From: Candidatus Omnitrophota bacterium
GTDB taxonomy: Bacteria > Omnitrophota > Gorgyraeia > JAFGHF01
Reading direction: 5' to 3'
Length of the DNA: 64,000 nt
NCBI GenBank assembly: GCA_020341815.1
Contig: CP070837.1
Coordinates: 465,743 to 529,742 of the forward strand
Part shown: positions 544-62,480 of the stretch, one piece after another
Numbering within the stretch: the stretch's first letter is position 1
How the letters are laid out: the number at the start of each line of letters is the position of its first letter
Program-made: the position numbers and the translations under genes
The notes under the pieces: generated by a model
What the model saw: only the letters and a program-made list of their open reading frames with translations
Database searches by the model: none
What the model was told of the DNA's origin: nothing

Positions 544-544
544 A

Positions 545-6015: not shown

Positions 6016-6016
6016 A

Positions 6017-6709: not shown

Positions 6710-6711
6710 GC

Positions 6712-9979: not shown

Positions 9980-9983
9980 TGGA

Positions 9984-10134: not shown

Positions 10135-10135
10135 T

Positions 10136-10690: not shown

Positions 10691-10704
10691 TGTTGTTCCC
10701 AAAA

Positions 10705-11088: not shown

Positions 11089-11119
11089 TTCGTTCTTCCT
11101 TTATGAGCTAAAGCTACTA

Positions 11120-11527: not shown

Positions 11528-11549
11528 CGGCTATAAAGTATCTTTAAGT

Positions 11550-11942
11550 TCAAGGAGTGAGTCTATTGACAGTTCCGTCTATCTCAATATTAAAATTATC
11601 CAAACCCGCACTCGCACCATCAGTAGTTCTTGTTGCTGTAGCAATGATATCATTGGCACCACTTGTAGAACCGTAAGTATAAAGGGCCTTTGCTGAACTT
11701 GTAATATCAAGGTCTAAAGCTGAACCTTCGTCGGCAATGTCAGTATCCACATGATACTCACTGTGTTCCAGATAATAGCGCAATTGCGAAGCACGGATTG
11801 CGCCTAACATAGAAATTGCCTCCGACTCTCTGGCCTTTTTTGCTGCCCCGATAAATCTGGGCAAGGCAAGTGAGGCCAAAATACCCACAATAATCACTAC
11901 AATCATCAACTCCAACAACGTAAAACCTCTTTTTCTATTCAC
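11550..11942 (-). CDS. type IV pilin (PilA/PilE-like major pilin candidate)
   Basis: 130 aa; MNRKRGFTLLELMIVVIIVGILASLALP. First pilin gene after pilC. SD AAAGGAGGAAG upstream. Confidence 0.8.
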   Translation of the reverse strand: MNRKRGFTLLELMIVVIIVGILASLALPRFIGAAKKARESEAISMLGAIRASQLRYYLEHSEYHVDTDIADEGSALDLDITSSAKALYTYGSTSGANDIIATATRTTDGASAGLDNFNIEIDGTVNRLTP

Positions 11943-11994
11943 CTTTCTCTTCCTCCTTTCATTCTTTTTAACTGAGTATCAATTCTTAACTAAA

Positions 11995-13218: not shown

Positions 13219-13351
13219 AATTTAGACTATAGCATAAAAAAGATTATTGTCAAGGAAATCCATAAGGATTTTCCGCAGACCTCGCCGCTTTGGGCGGGTC
13301 AAGCAAGAAAATCGTCGAAGATGATAACTTTTTAGCGATTTTCGCCGTCCA

Positions 13352-15073
13352 TTATCCCTCTATCCCGGCCATAGTAACACTCAAGACTTCCTCAAGGCTG
13401 GTTATGCCCTGCTCAACCTTTTTCAGCCCGTTTTGATACAGCGTTTTCATTCCTGTCTCCAGGGATATTTCCTTCAATTGTTGATAAGTCGCGCCTTGGG
13501 CGATAGCCTGACTTAAGCGTTCACTCATCGGCAGTATTTCATAGATGGCGCTTCTTCCGCGATAGCCGGTGCGGTTACAATAATCACACCCCTTGGGGCG
13601 ATAGATTAATTCTGCAGCCAATTTGACTTTACCTAACATCTCCCCCGTCGGTTCATAAGCCTCTTTACATTCCGGGCAAAGCTTGCGCACAAGGCGCTGC
13701 GCGCCTACCAGAAGCAGGGAGGGTGAGATTAAATAAGGGGATATCCCTAAGTCAATCAATCGGCTTATGGCCGTGGGGGCGTCATTCGTATGCAAGGTGC
13801 TCAATACCAGGTGCCCCGTAAGCGCCGCCCGCAGACAAATCTGGGCGGTCTCCAAGTCTCTTACCTCGCCGACCATAATAATATTGGGGTCCTGCCTTAA
13901 GAAAGCCCTCAGGCCATTGGCAAAGGTAAGCCCAATATCCGCCTTCACCTGAACCTGATTAATACCTTCCAGGCGATATTCTACCGGGTCCTCTATAGAG
14001 ACTAAATTCTTATGCGGGGTTTTGATTTCATTTAAGGTGGCATACAAGGTTGTGCTTTTTCCGCAACCCGTAGGGCCGGTAAGGAAAATCAGACCCCAGG
14101 GACTGGAAACGGCTTTGCGATAACTTTCCAAATCCTTTGCTTCAAAGCCCAGTTGGCTCAAATCCAGAGGAACCTGGCTCTTATCCAAAATCCTCAAGAC
14201 TACCTTTTCACCACGAACCGTGGGAATAGTAGAAACCCGAAAATCGATAATTCTATTTTCTGCTTTTACTATAAATGCCCCATCCTGAGGCAGGCGCTTC
14301 TCGGCAATGTCCATTTTAGCCAATATCTTAATTCGGGAAACAATAGCCAGAAGCAGATGCCCCGCGGGCGGAGGAATTTCATAAAGGACCCCGTCAATAC
14401 GATAGCGGACGCTGACCCTGTCTTTAAAAGGCTCAATGTGGATATCGCTGGCCCTGTCTTTAATTGCCTGCCTTAAAATTAAATCTACCAGCTTGATTAC
14501 CGGTGCCTCTTCCGCCTTGGCAATTAAAGTGTTGAGACTTAGAGCCTCTTCCTCGGGAATTTCTTCTATCTCTACCTCTCCGGCTTCGTATGACTCAGAG
14601 ATGGCCTCTTTAAGCAAATCCTTCTCGCCATAAAATCTATCTATGGCCTGTATAATATCACTTTCGCTGGCCACGATAGGATTTATGTCACATCCGGTCA
14701 TCTTTTTCAAGTTGTCCATCATCAGTACGTCCAGCGGATCGGCAAAGGCCACGGTAAGGGCGTTCAGATTGCGCGATAAAGGAATAAGGCAATAACGGCG
14801 GGCAAAGTTCTGCGGCACCAGTTTATCTAACTCCTGATTCGGGTCGGGCTCAAGTAATCCCTTGGCTAAGGATGCGTAAGGAATATTCAGCTGTTTCCCC
14901 AAAGTTACCACAATATCCTTTTCGGTAATCAGGCCCAGTTTTATCAAGACCTCACCGATTCTTTTGCCTTCCCGCTTTTGCACCTGAATAGCCTTCTGCA
15001 GCTGCTCCTCGGTAATCAGGCCCTGTTTAATCAAAAGCTCGCCTAATTTTAAACGGGACTTCCTTAATGCCAT
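13352..15073 (-). CDS. pilB: type IV pilus assembly ATPase PilB (GspE family)
   Basis: 573 aa; N-terminal T2SSE_N domain, Walker A GPTGCGKST, Asp box, His box, tetracysteine CPECK...CDYC. Confidence 0.9.
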   Translation of the reverse strand: MALRKSRLKLGELLIKQGLITEEQLQKAIQVQKREGKRIGEVLIKLGLITEKDIVVTLGKQLNIPYASLAKGLLEPDPNQELDKLVPQNFARRYCLIPLSRNLNALTVAFADPLDVLMMDNLKKMTGCDINPIVASESDIIQAIDRFYGEKDLLKEAISESYEAGEVEIEEIPEEEALSLNTLIAKAEEAPVIKLVDLILRQAIKDRASDIHIEPFKDRVSVRYRIDGVLYEIPPPAGHLLLAIVSRIKILAKMDIAEKRLPQDGAFIVKAENRIIDFRVSTIPTVRGEKVVLRILDKSQVPLDLSQLGFEAKDLESYRKAVSSPWGLIFLTGPTGCGKSTTLYATLNEIKTPHKNLVSIEDPVEYRLEGINQVQVKADIGLTFANGLRAFLRQDPNIIMVGEVRDLETAQICLRAALTGHLVLSTLHTNDAPTAISRLIDLGISPYLISPSLLLVGAQRLVRKLCPECKEAYEPTGEMLGKVKLAAELIYRPKGCDYCNRTGYRGRSAIYEILPMSERLSQAIAQGATYQQLKEISLETGMKTLYQNGLKKVEQGITSLEEVLSVTMAGIEG

Positions 15074-15079
15074 CTTTTA

Positions 15080-16555
15080 TTATTTCTCCAGTATGTCAAG
15101 GATGCTTTCCATTGCCTCTTCTTTTTTCATGGCTGACTGAACAAAGTCCCCATAGCCCTCTGGCGGAAGGTGTCTCTTTAATGAAGTCAATCCTGCCATC
15201 CGCGCGCGCTCTTTAGCCAAATGCGGAGTAATAAAGATGATTAATTCCTTATCCTCTGAACTGTCGTCTTTTTTACAAAATAGACTTCCCAATAAAGGAA
15301 TATCCCCTAAAAAAGGGACTTTTCTCATAATCTTCTCATCTTCGGTGTTAATTAATCCGCCGATTATTACAGTCTCTCCATCGGCAACGGTAACTGTAGT
15401 CTTGACGCTTCTGGTATGAGGGTCAAGGGCATTGGCAAGTATCGAGGAAACCTTTGTATTAATTACCGATGGCTCAATAATCATGGTGATCTCGCCCTGA
15501 GTATTAATCTGTGGGGTTACTTTCAGCGTCACTCCTGTTTCTACCCTTTCAGGGGAAACAATTGCCCTATCAATACCTCCTCCTGTAGAAGCAATCTCCT
15601 GTTGTTCGCTGGCAATTACCGTCTCGGCAGTAATCTTTATCTCAGCGGTCTCGTTATTCAGGGTGAGGACTTTCGGCCTGGCCAGGATCTTGCTATCGGT
15701 ATCCCTAGCAAGCATAGCCAGTGTCCCGCCCAGATTCATCGCCGAGATGTATCCCAGATAAAGGTTATCTACATTGCCGGCGGGGCCGACCTTTCGCATA
15801 TTGTTAGGTTTGGTAAAGGGAAAGGTGCTGCTACGCCCTGCCCCATAGGCAGAGGCAACTATTCCATCGGTAGCAGTACCCCATTCTATGCCCAGCTTAT
15901 CGATGGTTTCTAAGCTCGCCTCTATGATTTCGGCCTCAATCATTACCTGAGGAAGCTTTATATCGAGCTCTTTTATCGTCTTTTCAATCTTGGGAAACTG
16001 ACTGCGCACATCGGTAACGATAAGGCTATTGGTGCGCGAATCCTCAATCACCTGACCAAACTGGCTGACTATTTTCTCTATCACTTCCTTGATGCCGATT
16101 TCTTCGGACTGCCGCGCTTCCTGGCCGGCAGCGGTAAGCTCATATCCCTTTACCCGTGCATACTGCAGAGGAAAAACTTTGGTAATTGTCTCTACCTCCG
16201 GACGGCCCCATTCCTTAACTATAAATATTTTGCTGTCTTTTTTCTGCTCATAGCTTAAGCTGTTTGCCGTCATTATGGTATTTAAGGCATCTTCCACCGA
16301 AACCTTGTCCAGATAAAGGGTAACTCTGCGCTCCTTAACACTTTCACTGGCAATAAAGTTTAAACCGGCCTGCTGGGAAAATACCTTCAAGACATCCTTT
16401 AAGTCGGCATCCTGGAAGTCCATTGAAATTACCGGCAAACCCGATTCTTGTCCCAACTCATCCCCTGACTGCGCCCGGCTTAAATTGAGACCTAAGCCAA
16501 ATACCAAAAATAAGGCCAAAGGAACAAGTAAAACAACCCTTCTTTTTTTAAGCAT
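15080..16555 (-). CDS. pilQ: type IV pilus secretin PilQ
   Basis: 491 aa; signal peptide, secretin N domains, C-terminal secretin motif VPFLGDIPLLGSLF. Confidence 0.85.
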   Translation of the reverse strand: MLKKRRVVLLVPLALFLVFGLGLNLSRAQSGDELGQESGLPVISMDFQDADLKDVLKVFSQQAGLNFIASESVKERRVTLYLDKVSVEDALNTIMTANSLSYEQKKDSKIFIVKEWGRPEVETITKVFPLQYARVKGYELTAAGQEARQSEEIGIKEVIEKIVSQFGQVIEDSRTNSLIVTDVRSQFPKIEKTIKELDIKLPQVMIEAEIIEASLETIDKLGIEWGTATDGIVASAYGAGRSSTFPFTKPNNMRKVGPAGNVDNLYLGYISAMNLGGTLAMLARDTDSKILARPKVLTLNNETAEIKITAETVIASEQQEIASTGGGIDRAIVSPERVETGVTLKVTPQINTQGEITMIIEPSVINTKVSSILANALDPHTRSVKTTVTVADGETVIIGGLINTEDEKIMRKVPFLGDIPLLGSLFCKKDDSSEDKELIIFITPHLAKERARMAGLTSLKRHLPPEGYGDFVQSAMKKEEAMESILDILEK

Positions 16556-16565
16556 ATTATCCCCC

Positions 16566-16660
16566 TTTTATCACTGAAGCCACTGAAGTTGTTAACTGAA
16601 ACCACTGAGGCTTTATTCAGTGCTCTCAGTGTTATTTTTTCAGTGTTTTTCAGTGTCTCT
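16566..16660. repeat. intergenic palindromic repeat element, family A, copy 1 (CACTGAR units mirrored by YTCAGTG units)
   Basis: tcactgaagccactgaag...aaccactgagg // ttcagtgctctcagtg...ttcagtgtttttcagtgtctc. Imperfect 90-nt palindrome sitting between the pilP stop and the pilQ SD (AAAAGGGGGG). Confidence 0.6.
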
Positions 16661-16663
16661 GTT

Positions 16664-17104
16664 TTATCTTCTTCTTAATCTTTCGTCTTCCCTTAATATA
16701 GTAGGCCTGAGTATGTATTGATTTCCCTCATACAATACATAAACGCCCTCTTTGCGTATATCCAATATCTCTGCGCCTTCAATAACCTCACCTGGCCTTA
16801 CCACTGTATTATTAATAATTGCCTGGGGTATTTTCGAATCCCAAATCATACCCTGAACTACAAGATGAGCTAACCCCCCTGCGATGGGCGCCCTCTTCTT
16901 TTCCTTCGGCACCTCTTCCAGAGGCACAAACAATTCAAAAGGGCTCTCAAATGGATCACGCAGGCCCCGGCCGGTATATTCTACCGTCCCAGTCTGTCTT
17001 TTCAAAGTACGCTGGGCCCTGACCAGGGGATATCCTGCAATCAATGATAAGACGGCCAAAAGCCCCAAGCAAAACATTATTTTTTTCACCAAGGTTTTTT
17101 TCAT
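16664..17104 (-). CDS. PilP-like pilus assembly lipoprotein (putative)
   Basis: 146 aa; signal/lipobox-like N-terminus. Call rests on position between PilO and PilQ. Weak primary-sequence recognition. Confidence 0.45.
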   Translation of the reverse strand: MKKTLVKKIMFCLGLLAVLSLIAGYPLVRAQRTLKRQTGTVEYTGRGLRDPFESPFELFVPLEEVPKEKKRAPIAGGLAHLVVQGMIWDSKIPQAIINNTVVRPGEVIEGAEILDIRKEGVYVLYEGNQYILRPTILREDERLRRR

Positions 17105-17619
17105 TTCTTTAAATAAAATCCGCTTACTGTCAATTCTACCTCAGGGATTTTTGCCTCTCCTAGGGCGGCGACAGTGGGTTTTCTCATCCTGAGCTCTTTG
17201 ACCCGGATAAACTCTTTACTGCTTTCGATGAGACTCAAAAACTCTCCCAATTGATGATAATCGCAGGAGAAAGGTATTTTTAAGGGCAGTTCGACATAAT
17301 ATTCTTTTTCTTCCGCAGAAAGGGGATTGAAGGCTTCTATCTTTATGCCGAGTCGTTCAGCCATCCTTGAGATTCTATCCAAAATCTGAGTGCCCTCTGC
17401 CACAGAAAAAGACCTTTCTTGATGTGCTTTTATTTTCCTCTCTAATAAGCTGATAATACCCAAGACTTCATTTTTCTTCTTTTCTTCTTCTATCTGTGAC
17501 TTTACAGACTCTATTTTTTTTAGATTAGATTTGTATATCCCCCCATAGCCGATACGAAAAGCCAGAAAAAGAATCAGGATAAAAATGATTGTGCCTTTCC
17601 TGTGGCTCGTTATATTCAT
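17101..17619 (-). CDS. type IV pilus assembly protein PilO-like
   Basis: 172 aa; N-terminal TM, coiled coil, periplasmic domain. 4-nt overlap with the downstream gene. Confidence 0.55.
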   Translation of the reverse strand: MNITSHRKGTIIFILILFLAFRIGYGGIYKSNLKKIESVKSQIEEEKKKNEVLGIISLLERKIKAHQERSFSVAEGTQILDRISRMAERLGIKIEAFNPLSAEEKEYYVELPLKIPFSCDYHQLGEFLSLIESSKEFIRVKELRMRKPTVAALGEAKIPEVELTVSGFYLKK

Positions 17620-17629
17620 TCTTTTATCC

Positions 17630-19171
17630 TCATTTCTTAATGCAAATAATTGTAAAGTTCTTTACCGACGTTCCTTGCACCTCTGTTGAATCCATTGATT
17701 CTAATTCAATCTCTTCAAATCCCTCAAAAAACTTCTGATTTTCTTTTAAACTGGAAACAAAATTAGTGATTACCCTTACTTCCCGGGCATGGTCTTCGCG
17801 ATGAACTATCCCCTTAATAGTCAAGGAACGGCTGACCCTATCCTTTGATACTCTATCGGTAAAAAATAAATCAGTTAACCATGCGCCCGGAGGAATTATC
17901 CTGGGCAATTCATTAAACTTATTGGTCCAGAAGACTCTGTCGGTGATAAGCAAGTCCAGGCTGGATATCTTATTCTGCAATTCTTTTCTCGCTTTCTCTA
18001 TATCTTCATAAGAAAGACCTTCGGCATCCATGGTAACTTTAGGCCTGAGGGCAGTTACCTGTTCCAGCTGTTTCTTTTGCTCGCTGATACGATAAAACAT
18101 CAACAAATATAAAATCAAAAGGCCCACGCAGGATACCTTTATAGCCCGATATGCTGTATAGCGCAACTCCGGAGTAAACTCAAAAGCCTGCGCTTTTGAA
18201 ACCGGAGGCGCAACTTCGGCTTTGACCTTGCGGACCCGGTAAAGATTCACTTCATTCGGAGCTAAAATCAGCTTGCGCAGGCCCAAACCAATAGCTACGG
18301 CCATACTTAAAGGAGGCAGGCTCCTGCGAACTTTTATAGCTTTTGCCAGGTCGGCTTTCTCCACAGGTATTTTTAGTTCCTGACTCAAGGTCTTATCCCA
18401 ATTCTTAAGATCAACTTGCCCGCAGAGCAATATCTTGCCAACGATCTCGGCAGGAAAAAGTTTTTCATAATAATCCAAAGACATACGTAATTCATTAAGC
18501 AAATTATCAAATATTAATTCTTCTTCCGAAGGAAGAGAAACATCCCTGGTAAGATAACAAATCTTCTCTTTTAGAATATTGATATCGGCCATACCATAAT
18601 CAATATCTACGATGACATTGGGTTTATTTTTGGCTAATTGTCTGCCTGATGTAAAAAATCTCACCAGACTAAATGGAGCCGGCTCCAAAGCCAAAACTTT
18701 AAGGCCCGCCTGTTCCAAAAGAGAAATATGATTTTTGGCTATTTCCTTTTTTACTGCCACAAAAGTAATATCCATCTTGGCATCTTTGCCACGGGATAAA
18801 TTTGCCTGAAAATCCCAGAATAATTCTTCTATTTTAAAAGGAATGTGCCTTTTGGCTTCAAACTTTATCGCTGTTTCCCATTCGGCCTTTGGTATCTTGG
18901 GCATCTGAAAATATCTAATCAATACATCTTTTCCGGAAAGAGCGGTAAATACCTTCTTGGCGTTAATTTTATTCTCCCGAAAGACTTTCCTGATGGCACT
19001 TACTTTTGCCTCATCAGCTTGAGTCTTATCCGCCGAAGAAGCAGCCTCAATCTCTGCCTGGCCAAATTTAAGCAGGCGCGCACCAAAAAGCCCGCCTTTT
19101 AGCTGGGCAACATAAACATATCTTGCCCCTATATAAACACCTGTTGTAGTCTGAAAATTAAAACCTTTCAC
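17630..19171 (-). CDS. PilM-PilN fusion protein (actin-like ATPase PilM fused to the PilN TM and periplasmic domain)
   Basis: 513 aa. About 350 aa PilM-like N-terminal part, then TM helix AIKVSCVGLLILYLLMFYRI, then a coiled-coil and periplasmic PilN-like tail. Confidence 0.7.
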   Translation of the reverse strand: MKGFNFQTTTGVYIGARYVYVAQLKGGLFGARLLKFGQAEIEAASSADKTQADEAKVSAIRKVFRENKINAKKVFTALSGKDVLIRYFQMPKIPKAEWETAIKFEAKRHIPFKIEELFWDFQANLSRGKDAKMDITFVAVKKEIAKNHISLLEQAGLKVLALEPAPFSLVRFFTSGRQLAKNKPNVIVDIDYGMADINILKEKICYLTRDVSLPSEEELIFDNLLNELRMSLDYYEKLFPAEIVGKILLCGQVDLKNWDKTLSQELKIPVEKADLAKAIKVRRSLPPLSMAVAIGLGLRKLILAPNEVNLYRVRKVKAEVAPPVSKAQAFEFTPELRYTAYRAIKVSCVGLLILYLLMFYRISEQKKQLEQVTALRPKVTMDAEGLSYEDIEKARKELQNKISSLDLLITDRVFWTNKFNELPRIIPPGAWLTDLFFTDRVSKDRVSRSLTIKGIVHREDHAREVRVITNFVSSLKENQKFFEGFEEIELESMDSTEVQGTSVKNFTIICIKK

Positions 19172-51969: not shown

Positions 51970-51998
51970 TTGCCAAAGCGGACAAAATATGCTATACT
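51970..51998 (+). promoter_or_regulatory. sigma70-like promoter of rpoN (TTGCCA-N17-TATACT)
   Basis: TTGCCA at 51970-51975, 17-nt spacer, TATACT at 51993-51998. SD GGAGA before the ATG at 52028. Confidence 0.5.
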
Positions 51999-52027
51999 TA
52001 GGCGAGATCATAAGTTACGGAGATAAT

Positions 52028-53383
52028 ATGGCCTTAAAACAAAGGTTGAATCTAAGGCTCACCCAGCGGCTCATTCTCACTCCTAAGATGCGCCAGGCCC
52101 TGCATATTCTCCAGCTGCCGCTTTTGGAATTAAAAAGATTCCTGCGCCAGGAGATGCTTGAAAATCCCTTCCTGGAGGAAGAAGAAATCATCGATAATCT
52201 CCTCGATAACAAACAACTCGCGCCGGACTATTCCGAGAGTGATAACTACAATACCAGCTACGGCCAGGATATCCAGAAGAAAAAAGATTATCAAGAAACC
52301 CTGGCAACATATGCCCCTTCTCTGCAGGAGCACCTCCTGCGCCAGTTAGGCTTATCAAGCCCCAACCCCATCCTTTACAAAACGGCTGAATTTATTATCG
52401 GCAATATAGACGAAAACGGCTACAGGCACTGCTCCCAGCAAGAAATACAGCAAATCTTAGGTGTCGGAAAAAGCGATATTTATAAGGCCTTAAATCTAAT
52501 TTACACGTTTGACCCGCCGGGGGCAGGGGCCGAAGACTTAAAAGAATGTCTGTTTATCCAGCTAAAACAGAAAAACCAAGAAAACTCCCTGGCGGCCAAA
52601 ATAGTCTGCAATTATTTAACGGATTTGGAAAAGAAAAAATACAGTCATCTCGCCGGCATCTTCAAGGTCCCTCTGGAGCAAATAGAGGAAGCCGTCAGGG
52701 ATATTGCAGCTCTTGAGCCTAAACCCGGAAGAACCTTTGCAAACTCTCCTAACCCTTATATTAAACCGGATATAATCCTTATAAAACAAAAAGAAAGATA
52801 CGAAATTATCATCAATGATGAAGAATTGCCCATCTTACAAATCAGCTCTCAATACAGTAGACTCCTGCAGGATGAAAAAGTCGCAATAAGTACAAAGATA
52901 TATCTTAAAAAACAGTTCCATTCGGCCCTCTGGCTAATCAAGACTGTAGGCCAGAGACAATCAACGCTTATGGAATTAGCCCGCTTTCTCGTAGAGGCGC
53001 AAAGAGATTTTCTGGACAAAGGAAAAAGGTATCTCGCCCCTTTAAGCCTGGAAAAGATAGCCAAATCAATAAAAAGGGATAAATCCACCGTAAGCAGGCT
53101 GCTTGCCAATAAATACATTCAAACACCATTTGGAATATTTCCGCTTCGGGAATTCTTAAGCCACGGAATAAAAACAAAGAAAGGCAAGCTCATCTCCACC
53201 AAAAATATAAAGGCACAAATCGAGGATTTGATTAAAGGGGAAAATCCCGAACAACCCTTGACGGATGAAAAGATTGCGCAAACTTTAAAAGAAAGAAGTA
53301 TTCCTATTGCCAGACGAACCTGCGCCAAATACCGCGAGCAGCTAAAAATCCTTCCTGCTACCCTGCGCAAAAATCCTCATTAA
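52028..53383 (+). CDS. rpoN: RNA polymerase sigma-54 factor
   Basis: Start taken at MALKQRLNLRLTQRLILTPKMRQAL (table ORF starts at 51989). Regions I-III with HTH and RpoN box ARRTCAKYREQ. Confidence 0.9.
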   Translation: MALKQRLNLRLTQRLILTPKMRQALHILQLPLLELKRFLRQEMLENPFLEEEEIIDNLLDNKQLAPDYSESDNYNTSYGQDIQKKKDYQETLATYAPSLQEHLLRQLGLSSPNPILYKTAEFIIGNIDENGYRHCSQQEIQQILGVGKSDIYKALNLIYTFDPPGAGAEDLKECLFIQLKQKNQENSLAAKIVCNYLTDLEKKKYSHLAGIFKVPLEQIEEAVRDIAALEPKPGRTFANSPNPYIKPDIILIKQKERYEIIINDEELPILQISSQYSRLLQDEKVAISTKIYLKKQFHSALWLIKTVGQRQSTLMELARFLVEAQRDFLDKGKRYLAPLSLEKIAKSIKRDKSTVSRLLANKYIQTPFGIFPLREFLSHGIKTKKGKLISTKNIKAQIEDLIKGENPEQPLTDEKIAQTLKERSIPIARRTCAKYREQLKILPATLRKNPH

Positions 53384-53952
53384 TTCAATATAGCCATTAC
53401 CAGCGCAGAACACAAAGAAATGCTTAAGTTATCGTCAACGGGAATGGGCAGAAGTTCCACCAAAGTAGCCGCAAACGCTCCCAATAAAGAAACCCTTAAA
53501 CTCAAACCCAAATAAGTATATTTTAAAATTACGGCAACTAAGCCTGAAGCAATAAAAAAAGCAACGCTTCCCTCAAAGCTTTTCTTGCCAATCTTAATCT
53601 TACCCCATCTTATCCCTGCCAGGGCGCTTGCCGCATCGCCGAATATCAAAAACAAAAGCGCCGCTATGGCAATGGATTTTTCAAAGAAAATAACCGTCAG
53701 CAAAGAACCGAAAAGAAAATATGTGCTGCCTAAAACCTTGTGATGCGCCTCTTCTTCTTTAAGGATGGCTCCTAAGGCATTAAATATCCGGCGGTTAAAC
53801 TGGGGAAAGAGGAATCTGAATATCTCCAGAATCAAGAATAAAAAAGTCACCAAAGAAAGCCAGAATAGGGTTGTCCCTTTATCAGTAAAGAAGTAAACTA
53901 ATGGGAAAACTAATCCCGCAAGCCGATAAAGCTTTCTGAAGATTAAAATCAT
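53380..53952 (-). CDS. polytopic membrane protein of the CTP-dependent polyprenol (dolichol/phytol) kinase / CTP-transferase-1 superfamily (putative)
   Basis: 190 aa; 5-6 TM helices. C-terminal FGDAASALAGIRWGKIKI..KKSFEGSVA resembles the dolichol-kinase/phytol-kinase signature. 4-nt overlap (ATGA) with the upstream radical SAM gene. Confidence 0.4.
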   Translation of the reverse strand: MILIFRKLYRLAGLVFPLVYFFTDKGTTLFWLSLVTFLFLILEIFRFLFPQFNRRIFNALGAILKEEEAHHKVLGSTYFLFGSLLTVIFFEKSIAIAALLFLIFGDAASALAGIRWGKIKIGKKSFEGSVAFFIASGLVAVILKYTYLGLSLRVSLLGAFAATLVELLPIPVDDNLSISLCSALVMAILN

Positions 53953-55331
53953 TTTTCGTGAAACTTCGTATAATCGTTCTTCCAGATGGGGTCGTAGATT
54001 TCATGCAGTTTTTTGCTGTATTCATCCAAGGCGCGGGCCACATAGCCCTCCAGGATATCCCCTGCCCCATCGGTGGGGCGGGCCCCATGCTCTTTAACAA
54101 GCTCACGCAAAACCCAAGGCTGGTCAATTACGCAGCAGGGGGTGAGCATATTATCGCTGTGAGCTGCGGGGGCCTCTTGAGCATTCTGCCTTTCTCTGAT
54201 AGCCTTAAAAAAGGGCGATTCCATAATTTCTTTCAGGGTCTTATTACGGATATTATCCACGGTAAAATGCATAAAGGCACAGGGCTCTACATCGCCTCTA
54301 TTATTAATGTGCAGGTATTGCCTGGCGGCAATGCAGCCTTTAACATAAGGCCCGTCGTTCCAGAAATCACCGATAAAAAGAGGTCGCCTCCGCCTTACCC
54401 TGATTATGCTTTCACGCAATTTATTGCGCTGCTGGGGTGTAGCCATCAAAGATATATCGGGATTTTTACCTAAGGGGATATACTGGAAATACCAGCCGAA
54501 ATAACATCCCTTATTAATCATAAAGTCGAAAAATTCATCACTCGTTACCACATCCGCATTGTGGCGGTGCAGAGTTGCGGAAAATCCAAAGAAAACGCCC
54601 GCCTCCTTTAAATTATCCATGGCCTGCATCACTTTGCCCCAGACACCCTTTCCCCGCCTCTGGTCGGTCTCCTGCTCAAAGCCCTCTACGCTGATTGCCG
54701 GGGCAACATTTCCCAACTTTGCCAGTCTTGCCGCCATCTTCTTATCGATTAAAGTGCCGTTGGTATAGACCTGGAAGAAAACGTCATTATGCCGGGCATA
54801 AAAATCCAACAAATCCTCACGTACAAATGTCTCCCCGCCCTCGGTAACCACAAAATATACGCCCATATCTTTTTTGGCCTCTGTCAAAACTCTGTCCATA
54901 ATCTCTAAAGGCAAATCCGTATCTTTGGTGTATTCGCGGGTGGAGCAACCCGTGCACTTAAGATTGCAGCGCATCGTGGGGCTGAACAGGATAAACCAGG
55001 GCGGTTCATAGCCATGCTTTTTAGTGTATTCGGTATGCTTATTAAGTCCGGTTATCCCTGAATTAATGATGAAATTGCGCACGAATTTATCCCGGCAATT
55101 GGGAGAAAGCCCCCTGACTATCCTGCGGGCAAATTCCACTGCCGGATGATCTTCCTGGAAATATCCCCTAACTGCTCTAAGCTGGGCCTTGGTCCAGTCG
55201 GCCTCTGCAAGCTTCTCAGCCACATAGGTCATCTTAACCAGATTTTTATTGGAAAGCTTAGGAAGTAAATTAAACAGGCCTTTGATTGTCTGAGTGCGGG
55301 TATAATTTTTAATCCTTGTTTTCAGGTCCAT
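53949..55331 (-). CDS. radical SAM enzyme with C-terminal twitch/SPASM-like Cys cluster and an about 110-aa N-terminal extension
   Basis: 460 aa; CNLKCTGC (Cx3Cx2C), GGE motif (VTEGGETFV). C-terminal Cys at GCIAA, EPCAF, TPCCV. Family not assignable by eye. Confidence 0.8.
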   Translation of the reverse strand: MDLKTRIKNYTRTQTIKGLFNLLPKLSNKNLVKMTYVAEKLAEADWTKAQLRAVRGYFQEDHPAVEFARRIVRGLSPNCRDKFVRNFIINSGITGLNKHTEYTKKHGYEPPWFILFSPTMRCNLKCTGCSTREYTKDTDLPLEIMDRVLTEAKKDMGVYFVVTEGGETFVREDLLDFYARHNDVFFQVYTNGTLIDKKMAARLAKLGNVAPAISVEGFEQETDQRRGKGVWGKVMQAMDNLKEAGVFFGFSATLHRHNADVVTSDEFFDFMINKGCYFGWYFQYIPLGKNPDISLMATPQQRNKLRESIIRVRRRRPLFIGDFWNDGPYVKGCIAARQYLHINNRGDVEPCAFMHFTVDNIRNKTLKEIMESPFFKAIRERQNAQEAPAAHSDNMLTPCCVIDQPWVLRELVKEHGARPTDGAGDILEGYVARALDEYSKKLHEIYDPIWKNDYTKFHEK

Positions 55332-55342
55332 TTGCCTCCGTC

Positions 55343-56254
55343 CTATTTTATAAAAAATAATTTCTTTACAATATGGGCTCTTTTCTTTTTGGCAATAGCA
55401 GCCTTAAGCCGGCCTAAGGCTGCGCGCGCAGCCTTCTCTCCTTCCCGAATACACTCCTCACCTTTAGAAAAAGCCGCCCAGCTGATATGCTGAACTTTCG
55501 GCTGAATAACAAAATCCGCCAGATTGAGCTTAAGGCGAACCAACTCATGCGAGCGGATTTCGTCCGATTGAAAAAGGATATCCATTCCATGCTTAAACTT
55601 TTCATGGAAAATTCTAGACTCAACATTAATACCGATAATGAAATCCGCCCCCATTCTGCCTGTGGCCTCGACAGGCACTTCGCTGGTTATGCCTCCATCG
55701 ATTAAAAGCCTGCCTCCTATTTCTACCGGAGGAAATACAGCCGGCACAGAGCTGGAGGCCATAATAGCCTCTGACATCCTGCCTTCATTTAAGAGAACCT
55801 CCTCGCCGCTTTTTAGATTACAGGCAACGCAGGCAAAAGGAATCTTTGCATGGCTAAACTCGGCATCCTCCACCGTTTCCTTAACTAATTGCTTAATCTC
55901 TGTGCCGTTGGCTATCCAGCATTTAATTCCTTTAAGGTTCCAGAGCAAAAGCTCCTTGACAAAAGTTGCCAGGCTCTGAATTATCCTTACCTTCTCTTCC
56001 GGCGCGGAATCTGCGGCCAAGGATTCGAGTTTGATAATTGCTTCTCTCTTAAGAAGTGTGAGCATCTTCTGCTCCACACTCAAAGCTCTTCCTGAAAGAG
56101 CATAGGCTCCGCCAATCACCGCACCCATACTTGTGCCCACAATAAGGTCAACCGGTATCTTTGCCTCTTCAAATACTTTAAGAAGGCCTATATGGGCCAG
56201 GCCACGCACACCCCCTCCGCCTAAAGCCAAACCTATCTTAAATCTTTCACTCAT
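55343..56254 (-). CDS. patatin-like phospholipase
   Basis: 303 aa; GGGVRGLAHIG oxyanion motif, GTSMG (GxSxG) nucleophile, DGG Asp dyad motif. Confidence 0.8.
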   Translation of the reverse strand: MSERFKIGLALGGGGVRGLAHIGLLKVFEEAKIPVDLIVGTSMGAVIGGAYALSGRALSVEQKMLTLLKREAIIKLESLAADSAPEEKVRIIQSLATFVKELLLWNLKGIKCWIANGTEIKQLVKETVEDAEFSHAKIPFACVACNLKSGEEVLLNEGRMSEAIMASSSVPAVFPPVEIGGRLLIDGGITSEVPVEATGRMGADFIIGINVESRIFHEKFKHGMDILFQSDEIRSHELVRLKLNLADFVIQPKVQHISWAAFSKGEECIREGEKAARAALGRLKAAIAKKKRAHIVKKLFFIK

Positions 56255-56260
56255 AGTTTA

Positions 56261-56626
56261 TTACTTTACGTTAATACTGGTCGCCACCAGAAATACCCCT
56301 AAGAAGATAAAGCCAAGGCCGCCCATCTTCATTAAAGAGATGCTTTCCTTAAAAATAAATAATGACAGCAAAGGAACGATTACATAAGTCAGGCTCCAGA
56401 TTGGATAGGCATAACTTAATTCGGCCTTGGAAAGTGCCATAACATAGGCCGTCCAGCCCAAAATAGCAAAAGTTACACCTAACATTACTAAAGGATTGCT
56501 TAACATCTGGAAAAATTTTAATCCCATCTTTTCAATTGGCCCCACAATAAGTAATCCCTTTTTCAGAATTATCTGTCCGATACTGGTAAGAGAAACGCTG
56601 ATTAGAAGTATCACCAACGGCTTCAT
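56261..56626 (-). CDS. 4-TM EamA/SMR-like small membrane protein (DMT superfamily half-transporter)
   Basis: 121 aa, four hydrophobic helices. 4-nt overlap with the upstream CDP-alcohol transferase gene. Confidence 0.5.
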   Translation of the reverse strand: MKPLVILLISVSLTSIGQIILKKGLLIVGPIEKMGLKFFQMLSNPLVMLGVTFAILGWTAYVMALSKAELSYAYPIWSLTYVIVPLLSLFIFKESISLMKMGGLGFIFLGVFLVATSINVK

Positions 56627-57303
56627 TTGACCTCCTTCATAAGATTTGCCTTAATGGGCATTAAAACTACATAGGCCAAAGATAAAACAAAGGCCACTAA
56701 TTCAGGAATGATAAACAACATAGCCAGTATTATAACAAAACTGAGTAAATATTTCCACTGAAACAAAGACACATTCTTAAAAGTGGGATATTTAATGCCT
56801 GAGACCATCATCATTGCCAGTATGGCCACTATTACCGAAACAATTCGTGGTTCGATATGTAAATTATATTTATAGTAAATAAGGACAATAGATGCCACCA
56901 GTGCTCCAAAACCGGGAGTGGGCAGGCCGTTAAAGAAAAGCAGGGACTTCTCTTCGCTTTCGGTATTAAATCTGGCCAGGCGAAAGGCGCCGCAGAAAAC
57001 CGCTATCAGGCAAACCAGAAGGCGCCAGAGAAAAAACTTCGGGCAATTCAAAGTAAAGACTAAAACCGAAGGTGCCACCACAAAGGAAATCAAATCCGCC
57101 AGCGAGTCAAACTGCTTGCCGAACTCCGAGACCTCTTTGCTCATGCGGGCAACTTTTCCATCGGCAATATCGAAGATGATAGAGAAAAAGATAATCCAGG
57201 CCGCGGGGATGTAACTGCCTCTTACCGATAAAAATATGGACATTGCCCCAAACAGAAGATTAGCCGCGGTAATTACATTGGCCATATATCTTGCACTTTC
57301 CAC
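56623..57303 (-). CDS. CDP-alcohol phosphatidyltransferase (PssA-like, type II)
   Basis: 226 aa; complete D-x2-DG-x2-AR-x8-G-x3-D-x3-D motif (DIADGKVARMSKEVSEFGKQFDSLAD). PssA-like N-terminus NVITAANLLFG. SD AAGGAGG. Confidence 0.8.
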   Translation of the reverse strand: MESARYMANVITAANLLFGAMSIFLSVRGSYIPAAWIIFFSIIFDIADGKVARMSKEVSEFGKQFDSLADLISFVVAPSVLVFTLNCPKFFLWRLLVCLIAVFCGAFRLARFNTESEEKSLLFFNGLPTPGFGALVASIVLIYYKYNLHIEPRIVSVIVAILAMMMVSGIKYPTFKNVSLFQWKYLLSFVIILAMLFIIPELVAFVLSLAYVVLMPIKANLMKEVK

Positions 57304-57361: not shown

Positions 57362-60300
57362 TCAATCTTTCTTATGATTTTTATTGTTTAATTTGATGGT
57401 CTGGATGAGGCTGGGATGGTGGGTAATTTTTAATGTTATATCATCAATTATGGAATAAATGCATGGTATTATTACCAGCGTCAGGATAGTGGCAAATAAA
57501 AGCCCCCAGCATATACCTAAGGCCATGGGCACCAGAAATGGATCCTTGCCGCCGATGCCATAGGTCACCGTGGAAAGCCCGCCTACGGTGGTAACGGTAG
57601 TCAGGATAACGGGTCTGATTCTTATCTGCACTGCTTGTATAATGGATTGCTTTCTTTCCATTCCCTCGGCGCGCAGTTTATTGATAAAGGAAACAAGCAC
57701 GATGGCATCATTTACCACAATGCCGTTTAAGCCTACAATGCCCAACATTGCCATAAATGATAAGGGCAGGCCATGCACCAGAAAGGCGAAAACAACTCCT
57801 ATCAGACCAAAAGGAATAGCCAGCATAACTACAAACGGCTGCACCAATGACTTAAAGAATGAGGCCAGGATTAAATAGATAATCAAAAAGGCATATATGT
57901 ATGCCTTAATCAGGCTTCTTAAAGATTTTATGCTTTCTTCCTGCTCTCCCCCATATTTAACGGAATAGCCGGGATATTTGCGGGAGATATCCACAAACTT
58001 CCTGCTGAGCAAATTGTTAATCTTCATTGAAGTTATTTTATCGGTATCGATATTGCTGGAAACCGTCACCACGCGCTTTCCGTCTAAGTGGTGAATAGTC
58101 GTTGTGCCCGGAACCTTCTCTATTCTCGCCACTTTTTTCAAAGGAATCAGATTGCCGAACTTGTTCATTATCAGGATATCTTCAAAGGCGGAAATATGGC
58201 GCACGTCCTTCTTACTGAATTTTACCGTCACATCTGTCTCTTCTTCGGCCTTAACCGGCTTAATCTGGGTAGCAATCCCGCCTTCAAAAACCGCGCGCAC
58301 AGTCCTGGCAATCTGACCTACAGTCAGGGCGGCTTGCGTGGCTTTTTCGCGGTCGATACTGACCCTGATTTCTTCCTTTCCCGGCTTATGGTCCCAGGTA
58401 ACATCAAAAGCGCCCTCAATAGTAGAGAGATAATCCATATATTCATCGGCCATCTCATCTAATATAGTGAAGTCTTCACCCCTTAACCTTGCCTCAACAG
58501 GCTTACCTACGGGTGGTCCGGTCTCGGGCTTGTCAAAGCGCAGGTCGGTAAATCCTTTAACATCCTTTACCTCTCGGCGCAGCTGGGCAATGATTTCGTC
58601 AACCTTTCTCTTTCTGTCCTGTTCCGGCGTGAGATAGACCGCAATCTGCCCGATACTGCTGGCCTGCCTGGAAAAGGGGTCATTGCGGTCCTCTTCCATC
58701 CTTCCTACATTAGTAACATAGGTATCCAGTTCATCCTTGGGTAATTGGCTTACGGCTTTCTCTAAAGGAAGCATAAGCTGATGAGTCTTTTCTAAAGGCG
58801 TGCCGATAGGCGCCTCAGCCCTGATGAAAAAGAAGTCTATTCCTGTACTGGGAAAGAGGACAAACTTGATAACGGTAAAGGACAATATAATAGCAATAAC
58901 CAATATTAGTACAAAGGCGCTGACTACCCTGTATTTCCTGCGCACGGCCACTTCAAGTATGCGGGTATAAAAATTGACCATCTTTTTAAACCAAGGCAAC
59001 TCCTTAGCTATAGACAGGGGCTTACCCTTGGCGTCCAAGCGCACCCGCACAAAGTCGGCTATATGCGAAGGCAAAATAATTAAGGCCTCACCCAAAGAGG
59101 CAACCAGGGCTATAATCAAGACGGTGGGAATATTTCTGATAAACTTGCCGATAATGCCGGTCATAAACAAAAGCGGTGAAAATGCGGCAATTGTGGTAGC
59201 CACTGCGGCAATCACCGCCCCCATAACCTCCTCTGCCCCTTTGACAGCGGCCAGGCGCGGAGGCATCCCCTTTTCCATATAGCGGTAGGTATTTTCCGCA
59301 ACAATAATACCGTCATCAACCAGCATCCCCAGAACAATAATCAAGCCAAACATACTTACTACATTTATGGTAATGCCCATAGCACTCATCACCATAAATG
59401 TAGTGAAAAAGGCCACCGGCACGCCCAGGAAGGTAACGATAGCAATCCTTTTTTGTAAAAAGATAAGCAGAACCCCTAAGATTATAAAAACAGCCGCCCA
59501 AGTATTATTCCTGAGCACATTCAGCCGCCTGCGGGCAAAAAAGGAATAGTCATTTACGTATGAAATCTCTAAACCATCCTTGTGTACGGCCAGATATTCA
59601 GCGCAGGCGGATTTTACCTGGTCAACCATATAGAGGGCATCTCCCGATTCTTTTTTCAGGACAAGGAGATTTATGGAACGGCTTCCCAGGGTCTTGTTGA
59701 TTACATCTTCCTCTTTATATGTGTCCTCAACCCGCGCCACATCTTTTACTCTCAGCCAATTGCCTGAATCGTTGGCGCGGATGATTACGTCTTCTATTTC
59801 CCGGGCGCTTAAGAACTCTCCTGTAGTCCGGATACTGTATTCGCTGGTTGCGGTATCTATCTTTCCTGCCGGCAGGCTGACGTTACGCTCGGCGAGAGCA
59901 CCCTCTATCTCATCAAAGGAAACATAGTATTCATTTAATTTCTCGGGGTCCACCTGAACCTGCATTTCTCTTTCGCGGTAACCGGACTTTCTGATGCGGG
60001 CAACCCCCTCTACATCCTCAAGGATATCCTCGATGATATCGGCGTGGTGGCGCAACTGGCTTTCCGTCATCTTTCCCGATAAAGATACCTCAAGTATCGG
60101 ATACTGCCCGGTTTCCACCTCGGTTACCAGCGGATCATCGACATCGCGAGGCAAGTCCTTGACCCTGTCTACGGCGTTTTGAATATCCCTGATTACTTTT
60201 TGTTTATTGGGAGCATCCGGGTCTATGTATACTCCCAGGGAAGAGAAACCCACCGCAGATTTGGATTCGATTTTATCTATGCCGTCAACCTGCTTCAGCT

Positions 60301-60508
60301 CCCTCTCTATGGGCACGGTAATCAATTTTTCTACATCGGTGGGCGTGGCTCCGGCATAATAAGTAGTGACGCTAACTATATCAAAGGAAACATTGGGAAA
60401 TACTTCCTTATTTATCCCGAAATATACAATAAGTCCGATAATAATTATAATTATGGATATCAGGTTTATAAATAAAGACTGATTAACGCTAAAGCGCGGC
60501 AGACTCAT
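57362..60508 (-). CDS. RND efflux transporter permease (AcrB/HAE1 family)
   Basis: 1048 aa; 12 TM, two large periplasmic loops, conserved TM4 and TM10 regions. Confidence 0.9.
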   Translation of the reverse strand: MSLPRFSVNQSLFINLISIIIIIIGLIVYFGINKEVFPNVSFDIVSVTTYYAGATPTDVEKLITVPIERELKQVDGIDKIESKSAVGFSSLGVYIDPDAPNKQKVIRDIQNAVDRVKDLPRDVDDPLVTEVETGQYPILEVSLSGKMTESQLRHHADIIEDILEDVEGVARIRKSGYREREMQVQVDPEKLNEYYVSFDEIEGALAERNVSLPAGKIDTATSEYSIRTTGEFLSAREIEDVIIRANDSGNWLRVKDVARVEDTYKEEDVINKTLGSRSINLLVLKKESGDALYMVDQVKSACAEYLAVHKDGLEISYVNDYSFFARRRLNVLRNNTWAAVFIILGVLLIFLQKRIAIVTFLGVPVAFFTTFMVMSAMGITINVVSMFGLIIVLGMLVDDGIIVAENTYRYMEKGMPPRLAAVKGAEEVMGAVIAAVATTIAAFSPLLFMTGIIGKFIRNIPTVLIIALVASLGEALIILPSHIADFVRVRLDAKGKPLSIAKELPWFKKMVNFYTRILEVAVRRKYRVVSAFVLILVIAIILSFTVIKFVLFPSTGIDFFFIRAEAPIGTPLEKTHQLMLPLEKAVSQLPKDELDTYVTNVGRMEEDRNDPFSRQASSIGQIAVYLTPEQDRKRKVDEIIAQLRREVKDVKGFTDLRFDKPETGPPVGKPVEARLRGEDFTILDEMADEYMDYLSTIEGAFDVTWDHKPGKEEIRVSIDREKATQAALTVGQIARTVRAVFEGGIATQIKPVKAEEETDVTVKFSKKDVRHISAFEDILIMNKFGNLIPLKKVARIEKVPGTTTIHHLDGKRVVTVSSNIDTDKITSMKINNLLSRKFVDISRKYPGYSVKYGGEQEESIKSLRSLIKAYIYAFLIIYLILASFFKSLVQPFVVMLAIPFGLIGVVFAFLVHGLPLSFMAMLGIVGLNGIVVNDAIVLVSFINKLRAEGMERKQSIIQAVQIRIRPVILTTVTTVGGLSTVTYGIGGKDPFLVPMALGICWGLLFATILTLVIIPCIYSIIDDITLKITHHPSLIQTIKLNNKNHKKD

Positions 60509-61959
60509 AACAGGGCCTCGTATTTCTCAAGAATAACATTAAGAGATTCCTCTAAATCAACTTTACTCTTTTTCAACTCTAACATACTCCTGGCTAAATC
60601 AAGCTGCGCGTTCAGGTAATCCTGCTGATAGTCTATCAGCCTCTTTGTATTGGACCTGCCGAATTTAAAACGCTTTTCCTCTTCCTTAAGCTTGGCTTCC
60701 TGTAATTGCGCGGCCTTCAAGAGCTTATCCACATTCGCCTGGCGCATGATATAATCACGAAAGGCATCCCCCACTTCGGTAACGATGGACCTCTCCAGCT
60801 TCTTCATAGTCAGGATTGCCTTTTCTTTATTGGCCTTTGCTTTTTCAAATTCGCTGCGGGCTAAATTATTTTCCAGCGGTATAGAGATTTCTACTCCGGC
60901 GGAATAATCGGCATTATTTTCGGTGCCTATTCTCTTTACGGCACTGCTGAATTTTGGATCGATGCCGTTTGCGACCATGCTTGCGGTAAGGTCTATCTCC
61001 GGCCAGCGTTCATTGGCTTTGGTCTCTAAGGTAATATTCTCTATTTCAATATCGGTTTTGGCCTGCTGATAATCGCGCCTCTTAAGAAAGGCTTTCCTCA
61101 GGCAATCGCCCAATTCAACCTCGATCTCTCTGTATGTCAGTATCTCCGAAGGATGGATTCTGCTTGCAGCATCTAAATTCATTAACAGCTTAATCTGCTC
61201 CTCGTCACTCCTGTATGCGTTCTCCGCAAGCAGAAGGTCCTTTTCTCTGATTAAGACATTGGCTCCTGATGCCAGAAAGTCTCCCTTTTCTATAATGCCT
61301 ATATCATAATTTCGCGTATTGCTTTCATGCAGATTCCTGGCCTTTTCTAAAATTTCATTATAAATCCGCATGGCCTTTCTGGAGAAGACCCACTCCCAGT
61401 AGGCATCTTCCACATCCGCAAACAGAACCTCAATTCTTTCCTGTCTGTCCAGGTCGGAGTTCTCAATGGCCAGGCTGGTTAGAGTAATGCTGCGCCTGTC
61501 AACATAACCAAAGGCGTTTTTGGCTAAGGGCTGGCGGATTTCCAGGGCCGCCTCTGCGCTATGAGCCGGATTGCTAGAGACAAAGGCGGAATTGCTTGAC
61601 TCTCTGGTATTTGAAAAAGACAGGTTAACTTCGGTGCCTGTGGGAAGCTTTTTCTCGGCCTCTGCCGAATAGGTATTGGTGGTGGTTTTACTGGCGGCAA
61701 AACTGGAAAGCGCTTCTCTGGTATCTTTGGAATAACCTACACCCAGCGATAAACTGGTATCAAATATGGATTCGGCAATGCCTTGCCCGGTCTCGGCAAC
61801 CAAAAAATCCAATCGGGCCAATTTTACCTCAAAGCTGTTTTGGGCGGCAAAAATGATGCACGCCCCCAGAGAAAGCTCGTTTTCTGCCTCCTCGGCAATG
61901 CCTGCCAGGCATAAGGTGCAAAATAAAAATATAAAAATAAATCTTTTAATATATCTCAT
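60505..61959 (-). CDS. TolC-like outer membrane efflux protein (OEP family)
   Basis: 484 aa; signal peptide, two OEP repeats with coiled-coil segments. 4-nt overlaps with both neighbours. Confidence 0.75.
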   Translation of the reverse strand: MRYIKRFIFIFLFCTLCLAGIAEEAENELSLGACIIFAAQNSFEVKLARLDFLVAETGQGIAESIFDTSLSLGVGYSKDTREALSSFAASKTTTNTYSAEAEKKLPTGTEVNLSFSNTRESSNSAFVSSNPAHSAEAALEIRQPLAKNAFGYVDRRSITLTSLAIENSDLDRQERIEVLFADVEDAYWEWVFSRKAMRIYNEILEKARNLHESNTRNYDIGIIEKGDFLASGANVLIREKDLLLAENAYRSDEEQIKLLMNLDAASRIHPSEILTYREIEVELGDCLRKAFLKRRDYQQAKTDIEIENITLETKANERWPEIDLTASMVANGIDPKFSSAVKRIGTENNADYSAGVEISIPLENNLARSEFEKAKANKEKAILTMKKLERSIVTEVGDAFRDYIMRQANVDKLLKAAQLQEAKLKEEEKRFKFGRSNTKRLIDYQQDYLNAQLDLARSMLELKKSKVDLEESLNVILEKYEALL

Positions 61960-62402
61960 TTTTTATGCGCCAGATTTATATATACCTTTTTTAATATTCT
62001 GATATATTCTTCTCTGTCCTTCTGGGTAAGCACAGAAAACATCTCATTCACGCAATCGCGCCTCGCCTCTCTCACCCGTTTAATCGCCTCTTTCCCTTTG
62101 CTCAATATCATCACATTTACCACTCTTCTGTCCTGACTGGAGCGCTGCCTCTTGATAAGCTTAAGCCTTATCATTTTATCCACAATGGCCGTTACCGCGC
62201 TCATACTGAAGTTTAAGAGCCTGGCCAGCTCATTCATCTGGCAGCCCTTGCGTTCGTAGAGAAAATCAAGGATAACCACCTGAGGCACGCTCAAGAGGCC
62301 TTTGGCAAAGATATCCTTGTGCTGGTTGCGGGTGAACTCCCTCATAATCAAGGGCAGCATCGTGCTCACTTCTTTCCCGAAATCCGAACCTTTGACTTCC
62401 AT
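61956..62402 (-). CDS. MarR family transcriptional regulator
   Basis: wHTH VPQVVILDFLYERKGCQMNELARLLNFSMSAVTAIVDKMIRLKLIKRQRSSQDRRVV. Probable start MEVKGSDF (ATG 62400-62402) preceded by AAGGAGG; table ORF starts at 62438. Confidence 0.75.
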   Translation of the reverse strand: MEVKGSDFGKEVSTMLPLIMREFTRNQHKDIFAKGLLSVPQVVILDFLYERKGCQMNELARLLNFSMSAVTAIVDKMIRLKLIKRQRSSQDRRVVNVMILSKGKEAIKRVREARRDCVNEMFSVLTQKDREEYIRILKKVYINLAHKK

Positions 62403-62480
62403 AACCGTCCTCCTTCTTAAGAGATATTTAATCATCAAAATATTTCACTAAATGAACTATTCACAACCTTAAGTATATAC

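Follow-up and report, generated by a model that had tools for sequence, protein, structure and literature searches.

A radical SAM enzyme of the Mss family beside candidate phospholipid genes in an Omnitrophota bacterium

Introduction

What does a radical S-adenosylmethionine (SAM) enzyme do among genes for phospholipid metabolism? The question is raised by five genes in a 64,000-nucleotide stretch of DNA from a Candidatus Omnitrophota bacterium (assembly GCA_020341815.1, contig CP070837.1, positions 465,743 to 529,742), the whole of which we call the window. In order of transcription, the genes encode a phosphatidylserine synthase (PssA), a small protein with about four transmembrane (TM) segments, a patatin-like phospholipase, the radical SAM enzyme (rSAM) and a 190-amino-acid membrane protein (P190). 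A sequence-only reading of the window had proposed that rSAM performs C-C chemistry on lipid tails, comparable to the membrane-spanning lipid synthases Tes and Mss. Judged by its sequence, rSAM is a new Omnitrophota member of the described Mss family. We consider it probable that the cluster is a phospholipid synthesis and remodelling operon whose rSAM gene belongs to that family.

Bacterial membrane-spanning lipids, namely diabolic-acid lipids and brGDGTs (branched glycerol dialkyl glycerol tetraethers), underlie widely used palaeoclimate proxies, and both their producers and the full pathway are debated. An Omnitrophota homologue of Mss is, taken alone, a small addition, since reports of such homologues in this phylum exist (PMC13159169, PMC11868695, bioRxiv 10.1101/2023.10.20.563219). 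The earlier statement that the gene combination matches no recognised lipid pathway was thus too strong, given that Mss was described in 2022. A modest lead is the lineage-specific coupling of the mss gene to a patatin and to a protein of the CdsA/CarS fold, which is absent from the literature searched, as is any Mss-patatin cluster. P190 and the patatin are two candidate accessory enzymes for a pathway of which only Mss and Ger are known.

Relationship of rSAM to Mss

The rSAM gene (53949-55331, minus strand) encodes 460 amino acids, and its product matches UCB57539.1, which comes from a Candidatus Omnitrophota metagenome-assembled genome (MAG), at 100% identity. Gene and domain assignments were checked with Pfam and NCBIfam models. 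rSAM matches PF04055 (74 bits) and PF13186, and has the sequence CNLKCTGC at residues 122-129.

The family is large. More than 3,700 relatives reached E<=1e-10 in a word-indexed search, and the best 120 of them are full-length matches with 49-82% identity. With phmmer, 620 clusters (50% identity) were found at E<=1e-30 among 1.84 billion representatives. The relatives belong to Omnitrophota, Atribacterota, Dictyoglomaceae, Zixibacteria, Latescibacteria, Bacteroidales, Patescibacteria, Woese-, Pace- and Nanoarchaeota, Helarchaeota and Spirochaetota, and also occur on gammaproteobacterial (enterobacterial) plasmids. This distribution, with its DPANN and Asgard archaea, Atribacterota, candidate phyla and gammaproteobacteria, matches the unusual phylum spread published for Mss homologues (PMC13159169, section 9; PMC11868695, where they are found in 15 of 267 Omnitrophota MAGs and in Woesearchaeia).

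Two distant relatives link rSAM to Mss. One phmmer hit (P0302, E 5e-104) lies in the same 90% cluster as WP_040330614.1 of Clostridium ihumii, and a cluster look-up on distant representatives identified P0465 as this same protein. Supplementary Table 3 of PMC13274423 lists WP_040330614.1 as "Mss homologe" and pairs it with a Ger homologue. In BLASTP, rSAM is 39% identical to it over 429 amino acids, starting from residue 1 (E 3e-121). The other relative, P0354 from Thermosipho sp. (Thermotogales), is 35% identical to rSAM over 447 amino acids (E 4e-93), and mss homologues occur in all Thermotogales genomes examined (PMC13159169). Verified Mss enzymes are Tmari_0825 of Thermotoga maritima and WP_129545148.1 of Thermoanaerobacter ethanolicus (Sahonero-Canavesi et al. 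2022, PMC13159169); like rSAM, Mss is a radical SAM enzyme of about 460 amino acids found in anaerobes. The thresholds used in the literature for Mss homology are E<=1e-30 to 1e-50 and an identity of at least 30%. By these thresholds rSAM is an Mss homologue, via one transitive step. The proposed likeness to Mss therefore held, in that rSAM is homologous over its full length to proteins that the literature lists as Mss homologues.

We aligned 25 members of the family and also compared rSAM with the Clostridium and Thermosipho proteins. The three cysteines of the core cluster motif CxxxCxxC (C122/C126/C129) are invariant. Beyond the core, C333, C351 and C399 are also invariant and C79 is nearly so. 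The hairpin C333-x12-G-x4-C351 corresponds to the first half of the SPASM motif (C-x9-15-G-x4-C), which is common to SPASM and twitch domains. The half found only in SPASM domains, CX2CX5CX3C, is absent from the C-terminal domain. Given that the hairpin is present and this second half is not, the C-terminal domain is, by its motifs, twitch-like, with one predicted auxiliary cluster on three cysteines. An AlphaFold2 model (pLDDT 90.4) likewise predicts a twitch/SPASM fold, and residues 1-106 are predicted to form five helices and no strands.

The sequence-only reading had called the N-terminal extension unusual. This was mistaken: the region of about 110 residues is conserved throughout the family, including its Clostridium and Thermosipho members, and it is therefore a hallmark of the family rather than an oddity.

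The five genes and their conservation

The five open reading frames (ORFs) lie head to tail on the minus strand and span 53380-57303, and both the coordinates and the two ATGA overlaps read as first reported. The ATGA at 56623-56626 is shared by the stop codon of PssA and the start codon of the 4-TM gene; that at 53949-53952 is shared by the stop of rSAM and the start of the P190 gene. The remaining junctions are gaps of 6 nt (4-TM gene to patatin) and 11 nt (patatin to rSAM). PssA, the 4-TM gene and rSAM each have a ribosome-binding site of the GGAGG type ahead of the start codon. The gene assignments of the sequence-only reading were also borne out: every motif that it named is present, and PssA, EamA, patatin and radical SAM identities follow from Pfam and NCBIfam, with P190 placed by a family profile.

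PssA (56623-57303, minus strand; 226 amino acids, about 6 TM segments, GTG start) is a type II CDP-diacylglycerol--serine O-phosphatidyltransferase. It scores 79 bits on PF01066 and 118.2 bits on TIGR00473 (pssA), whose cutoff is 107, and has the CDP-alcohol motif D-G-x2-A-R-x8-G-x3-D-x3-D. The 4-TM protein (56261-56626, minus strand; 121 amino acids) has four to five helices, counted from hydropathy, and scores 31 bits on PF00892, whose cutoff is 28. It appears to be a half-size EamA/DMT unit of the SMR or ArnE/ArnF type. However, it misses the equivalog cutoffs of both ArnF (44.6 bits versus 99) and ArnE (27.4 versus 92), and its sequence allows no closer name than half-size EamA/SMR-like. 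Putatively, it is a subunit of a transporter for small molecules or lipid-linked compounds. The patatin (55343-56254, minus strand; 303 amino acids, without a TM segment) matches PF01734 at 115 bits and is RssA-like, yet scores below the RssA cutoff. Its motifs are intact, i.e., the oxyanion motif GGGxRG (as GGGGVRG), the nucleophile motif GTSMG and the aspartate motif DGG.

P190 (53380-53952, minus strand) is an integral membrane protein that itself has no Pfam or NCBIfam match. Its relatives are few, with 43 at E<=1e-3. Several of them carry the JGI name "dolichol kinase", and PF01148 is matched by 6 of 24 family members. A profile of the family could be aligned with CdsA of T. maritima across the motif D-x3-A-x3-G...K-S-x-E-G. 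One relative, the metagenomic P0149 (333 amino acids), is fused at its N terminus to PlsY, the glycerol-3-phosphate acyltransferase (PF02660), which ties the P190 family to phosphatidate synthesis. On these four grounds, we assign P190, from sequence comparison, to the superfamily of CTP-dependent intramembrane lipid enzymes, as a small member with a fold of the CdsA/CarS/dolichol-kinase type. It is probably a CTP-dependent lipid kinase or cytidylyltransferase. Unlike CdsA, it lacks the C-terminal CdsA signature (judged by eye) and has an invariant DDN near the C terminus.

Conservation of the five-gene synteny was a check suggested by the sequence-only reading. We compared the ORFs of 80 related genome loci (numbered with the prefix L below) with the proteins of the window. 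The P190 gene accompanies rSAM in 16 of the 80 loci and, in 14, is located directly downstream, overlapping or abutting rSAM. The patatin gene accompanies rSAM in 11 loci, directly upstream in nine and directly downstream in one, the Woesearchaeota locus L015. By contrast, PssA and/or the 4-TM gene occur with rSAM in only two loci, those of the closest relatives (L001 and L002). Among the related loci, the 4-TM gene is confined to these two, and PssA keeps its position in the window only in L001. The loci with the P190 gene belong to Omnitrophota MAGs, to bulk-submitted MAGs labelled "Planctomycetia" or to an unclassified "uncultured bacterium" (L018). Given that PssA and the 4-TM gene are limited to two loci and that the patatin and P190 genes are bound to the lineage, the five genes are not conserved together as a unit. 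What is conserved, and only within Omnitrophota, is a module of patatin, Mss and P190. In the literature searched, Mss is not described as translationally coupled to a CdsA/CarS-fold protein with a patatin gene ahead, and rSAM differs in this respect.

A predicted membrane protein of 62-77 amino acids, with a weak match to DUF2157, recurs upstream of rSAM in Omnitrophota loci. No small ORF beside rSAM is conserved outside the Omnitrophota loci.

Proposed function

The proposed function of rSAM draws on the analogy with Mss of T. maritima and T. ethanolicus, from which we infer acyl-tail coupling. The soluble enzyme would use its helical N-terminal domain to dock on the membrane. SAM would be cleaved at the cluster on C122/C126/C129, and an acyl chain would lose a hydrogen from its end or from a position close to it; the carbon activated in this way would then be coupled to the tail of another acyl chain. 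The product would be a membrane-spanning alpha,omega-diacid of the diabolic-acid type. The auxiliary cluster on C333/C351/C399 might hold the first radical or relay electrons, as proposed for the 3-Cys/1-Met cluster of Tes (reviewed in PMC13459092).

The roles of the other genes are suggested by their protein families. P190 would most likely use CTP, either for the phosphorylation of a glycerolipid or for its activation with CDP; PssA would add serine to the CDP-activated lipid, and the patatin hydrolase could remove or exchange acyl chains. The 4-TM protein, together with an RND permease and a TolC-like protein encoded directly upstream (see below), may move the lipid or a lipid-linked intermediate. 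A glycerolipid context is indicated by the translational coupling of rSAM to P190, with its CdsA/CarS fold, which is kept in 14 loci, and by the adjacent patatin gene in 10.

Several observations weigh against the reading of the cluster as a lipid operon with an Mss enzyme. The assignment to Mss involves one transitive step, through a literature-listed homologue, plus a Thermotogales protein whose orthology to Tmari_0825 is presumed, and an identity of 35-39% leaves room for another reaction or coupling position. When a Dictyoglomaceae relative was the query, its 120 best matches did not include cultured Dictyoglomus or Thermotoga, and only uncultured relatives were among them. There is no Ger, PlsA or ElbD gene within the 64-kb window. 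The proposed accessory roles derive from family-level assignment only, and distant homologues of P190 (in WOR-3 and others) are not linked to rSAM. Outside Omnitrophota, rSAM occurs without lipid neighbours, beside uracil-DNA glycosylase, panD, NAD synthase or TetR/MarR genes. In a census of 89 immediate neighbours on the same strand, most were housekeeping genes that differ from lineage to lineage (uracil-DNA glycosylase, aspartate decarboxylase, NAD synthase, TetR, FNR-like reductase).

A bolder proposal, to which we give low credence, is that patatin, Mss and P190 form a dedicated module that converts ready-made diester phospholipids, possibly derived from a host, into membrane-spanning lipids. 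In this scheme, P190, as a new CTP-dependent kinase or cytidylyltransferase, would re-activate the bolaform product for the attachment of head groups, here serine via PssA. If this were true, it would supply missing accessory steps in the synthesis of bacterial membrane-spanning and brGDGT lipids.

Alternative explanations

The alternative that survives best, although we regard it as rather unlikely, is that rSAM is Mss-like but modifies lipid chains in a different way. It could make a mid-chain cross-link, perform a cyclisation, couple at another carbon or act on ether or other chains. The identity to the nearest listed Mss homologue is only 39%, and that to the Thermotogales protein 35%. The family is large, and a single genome neighbourhood can contain paralogues with 5 versus 8-9 cysteines after the core motif. 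Moreover, verified Mss enzymes already vary in the position of coupling, omega versus omega-1 (PMC13159169), and the patatin and P190 partners are specific to one lineage. However, the window, Clostridium and Thermosipho proteins do not differ in the three C-terminal cysteines, the N-terminal domain and most of the core motifs, which argues for the same basic chemistry. If this alternative were true, the Omnitrophota module would make a lipid that has not yet been described.

The cluster is directly preceded, on the same strand, by genes for a MarR-family regulator (61956-62438, minus strand; 160 amino acids, PF01047 and PF12802), a TolC-like outer-membrane efflux protein (OMF; 60505-61959, minus strand; 484 amino acids, PF02321 at 112 bits) and an RND permease (57362-60508, minus strand; 1048 amino acids, PF00873 at 635 bits). 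Successive genes of these three overlap by 4 nt, and the RND gene is separated from PssA by 58 nt. No gene for a membrane-fusion protein (periplasmic adaptor) is present among the three, which is unusual for a tripartite efflux operon. An improbable explanation is that the operon is mainly a unit for efflux and envelope stress, made up of the MarR, TolC and RND genes together with ordinary phosphatidylserine synthesis, and that rSAM and its two partners are an independent module located downstream by chance. The overlaps among the three genes and the gap before PssA favour this explanation, as do a weak promoter-like site within that gap and the linkage of PssA and the 4-TM gene to rSAM in only the two closest relatives. 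On the other hand, the eight genes share one strand and are nowhere separated by more than 58 nt, and no terminator-like site between them rises above background. The RND gene directly abuts PssA in L001, and RND genes occur near rSAM also in L003 and L007. MarR genes adjoin rSAM in L004 and L007; in L008-L011, they are no more than a few genes away from a second rSAM paralogue. The transcription unit may thus comprise eight genes, from MarR to P190, of which MarR is likely the first.

We also compared rSAM with other radical SAM families. The part of the earlier comparison that concerned Tes did not stand. Tes, or GDGT-MAS, the archaeal tetraether synthase (PDB 7TOL/7TOM), has in common with rSAM the radical SAM core and a proposed tail coupling of two lipid chains, and an auxiliary cluster with three cysteine ligands is plausible in both. 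However, the likeness in sequence and fold is confined to the core, over which the rSAM family profile matches Tes at 25.7 bits. No homology was found in rSAM to the parts of Tes beyond the core, namely the N-terminal cluster domain and the rubredoxin-like domain. We therefore rejected membership in Tes.

Gms/Hbs, the GMGT (H-GDGT) bridge synthase (PMC11214058), resembles rSAM in having an N-terminal extension of about 100 amino acids, the core and a C terminus of the SPASM/twitch type. It acts on lipid chains, and homologues have been reported in Omnitrophota (PMC11214058; bioRxiv 10.1101/2023.10.20.563219). For Hbs, the identity to AhbD is 36% (E 7e-79) and the number of conserved C-terminal cysteines 7-8 (bioRxiv 10.1101/2023.10.20.563219), whereas rSAM has three invariant ones and scores only 78.8 bits on the AhbD model TIGR04545, whose cutoff is 500. 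Membership in Gms/Hbs was rejected because of this weak score and the small number of cysteines.

The weakest explanation, that rSAM is a maturase of peptides, proteins or cofactors (of ribosomally synthesised and post-translationally modified peptides, RiPPs; of heme, NirJ/AhbD-like; or of the sulfatase type) and that its lipid context is incidental, is very improbable: NirJ2, mycofactocin maturase and AhbD give its best NCBIfam scores, the RiPP maturases SkfB and SuiB are its best PDB matches, and outside Omnitrophota it has neighbours unrelated to lipids or, on enterobacterial plasmids, stands alone, but the scores are far below cutoffs (the best, NirJ2, is 105 bits versus 500), the predicted N-terminal domain is all-helical and contains no winged-helix RiPP recognition element, neither a conserved small ORF nor heme, sulfatase or PQQ genes are near rSAM, the identity of 39% to a listed Mss homologue is full-length, and the translational coupling to a CdsA/CarS-fold membrane enzyme is conserved. 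rSAM reaches no NCBIfam cutoff.

Other observations

Some related loci have features of their own. In a Woesearchaeota MAG (L015 6001-8391, on a 636-kb contig), an rSAM homologue with 55% identity is followed 192 nt later by a patatin gene whose product is 34% identical to that of the window. This pair seems to have moved together across domains.

Mss is often, but not always, accompanied by the ether-forming enzyme Ger/PlsA. A gene of the Ger/PlsA type (two BcrAD_BadFG domains plus DUF2229) adjoins rSAM in one of the 80 loci. In this locus, from a Ca. Zipacnadia MAG (L030 5280-11301), a TetR gene is followed by rSAM, an ORF of 89 amino acids on the other strand and then the gene for a protein of more than 1131 amino acids. 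The order of domains in the latter, two BcrAD_BadFG and then DUF2229, is that at the start of Ger/PlsA, and the ORF runs to the end of the locus. Such a neighbour fits a role as Mss, although it is a single case.

Two rSAM-family paralogues occur about 4 kb apart in L008-L011, for example at 404-1846 (minus strand) and 5923-7428 (plus strand) of L010. They differ in the number of cysteines after the core motif, with 5 in one and 8-9 in the other. We considered whether the second paralogue could be a partner of the Hbs type; its score on the AhbD model, however, is only 65-68 bits. The B12-binding radical SAM gene in these loci is of the housekeeping TIGR03960 type and is found next to RNase G.

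In Zixibacteria (L062, L065 and L079, at about 6000-10900), rSAM is followed by a B12-binding radical SAM gene that is BchE/HpnJ-like and reaches no specific family cutoff. Two genes further on is a gene for a membrane protein of the PAP2 superfamily. This locus may be another lipid-modifying neighbourhood.

In Ratteibacteria, TA06, Vermiphilus and others (L055, L064, L068, L073, L076 and L078), rSAM is located between panD and a gene for an FNR-like oxidoreductase with NAD_binding_1 and FAD_binding_6 domains. This oxidoreductase might serve to reduce the radical SAM cluster.

Full-length rSAM homologues (33% identity, E ~4e-72) are encoded on IncF plasmids of Escherichia albertii (L081 2254-3633, NZ_CP117576.1) and Klebsiella pneumoniae (L082 8067-9368, NZ_CP077819.1). 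These genes stand alone among insertion sequence elements near replication genes. An ORF of 191 amino acids follows the E. albertii homologue, but its product is unrelated to P190.

Within the window, the P190 gene converges with rpoN (51989-53383, plus strand). Their stop codons overlap by 4 nt at 53380-53383, leaving no intergenic space and no terminator-like site between the two genes. Further away, at 10136-19171 (minus strand), four small ORFs with prepilin-type N termini (e.g., GFTLLELMIVVIIVGILASLALP) are located downstream of genes for proteins of about 407-573 amino acids. Judging from ORF starts only, this run resembles a gene cluster for type IV pili or type II secretion.

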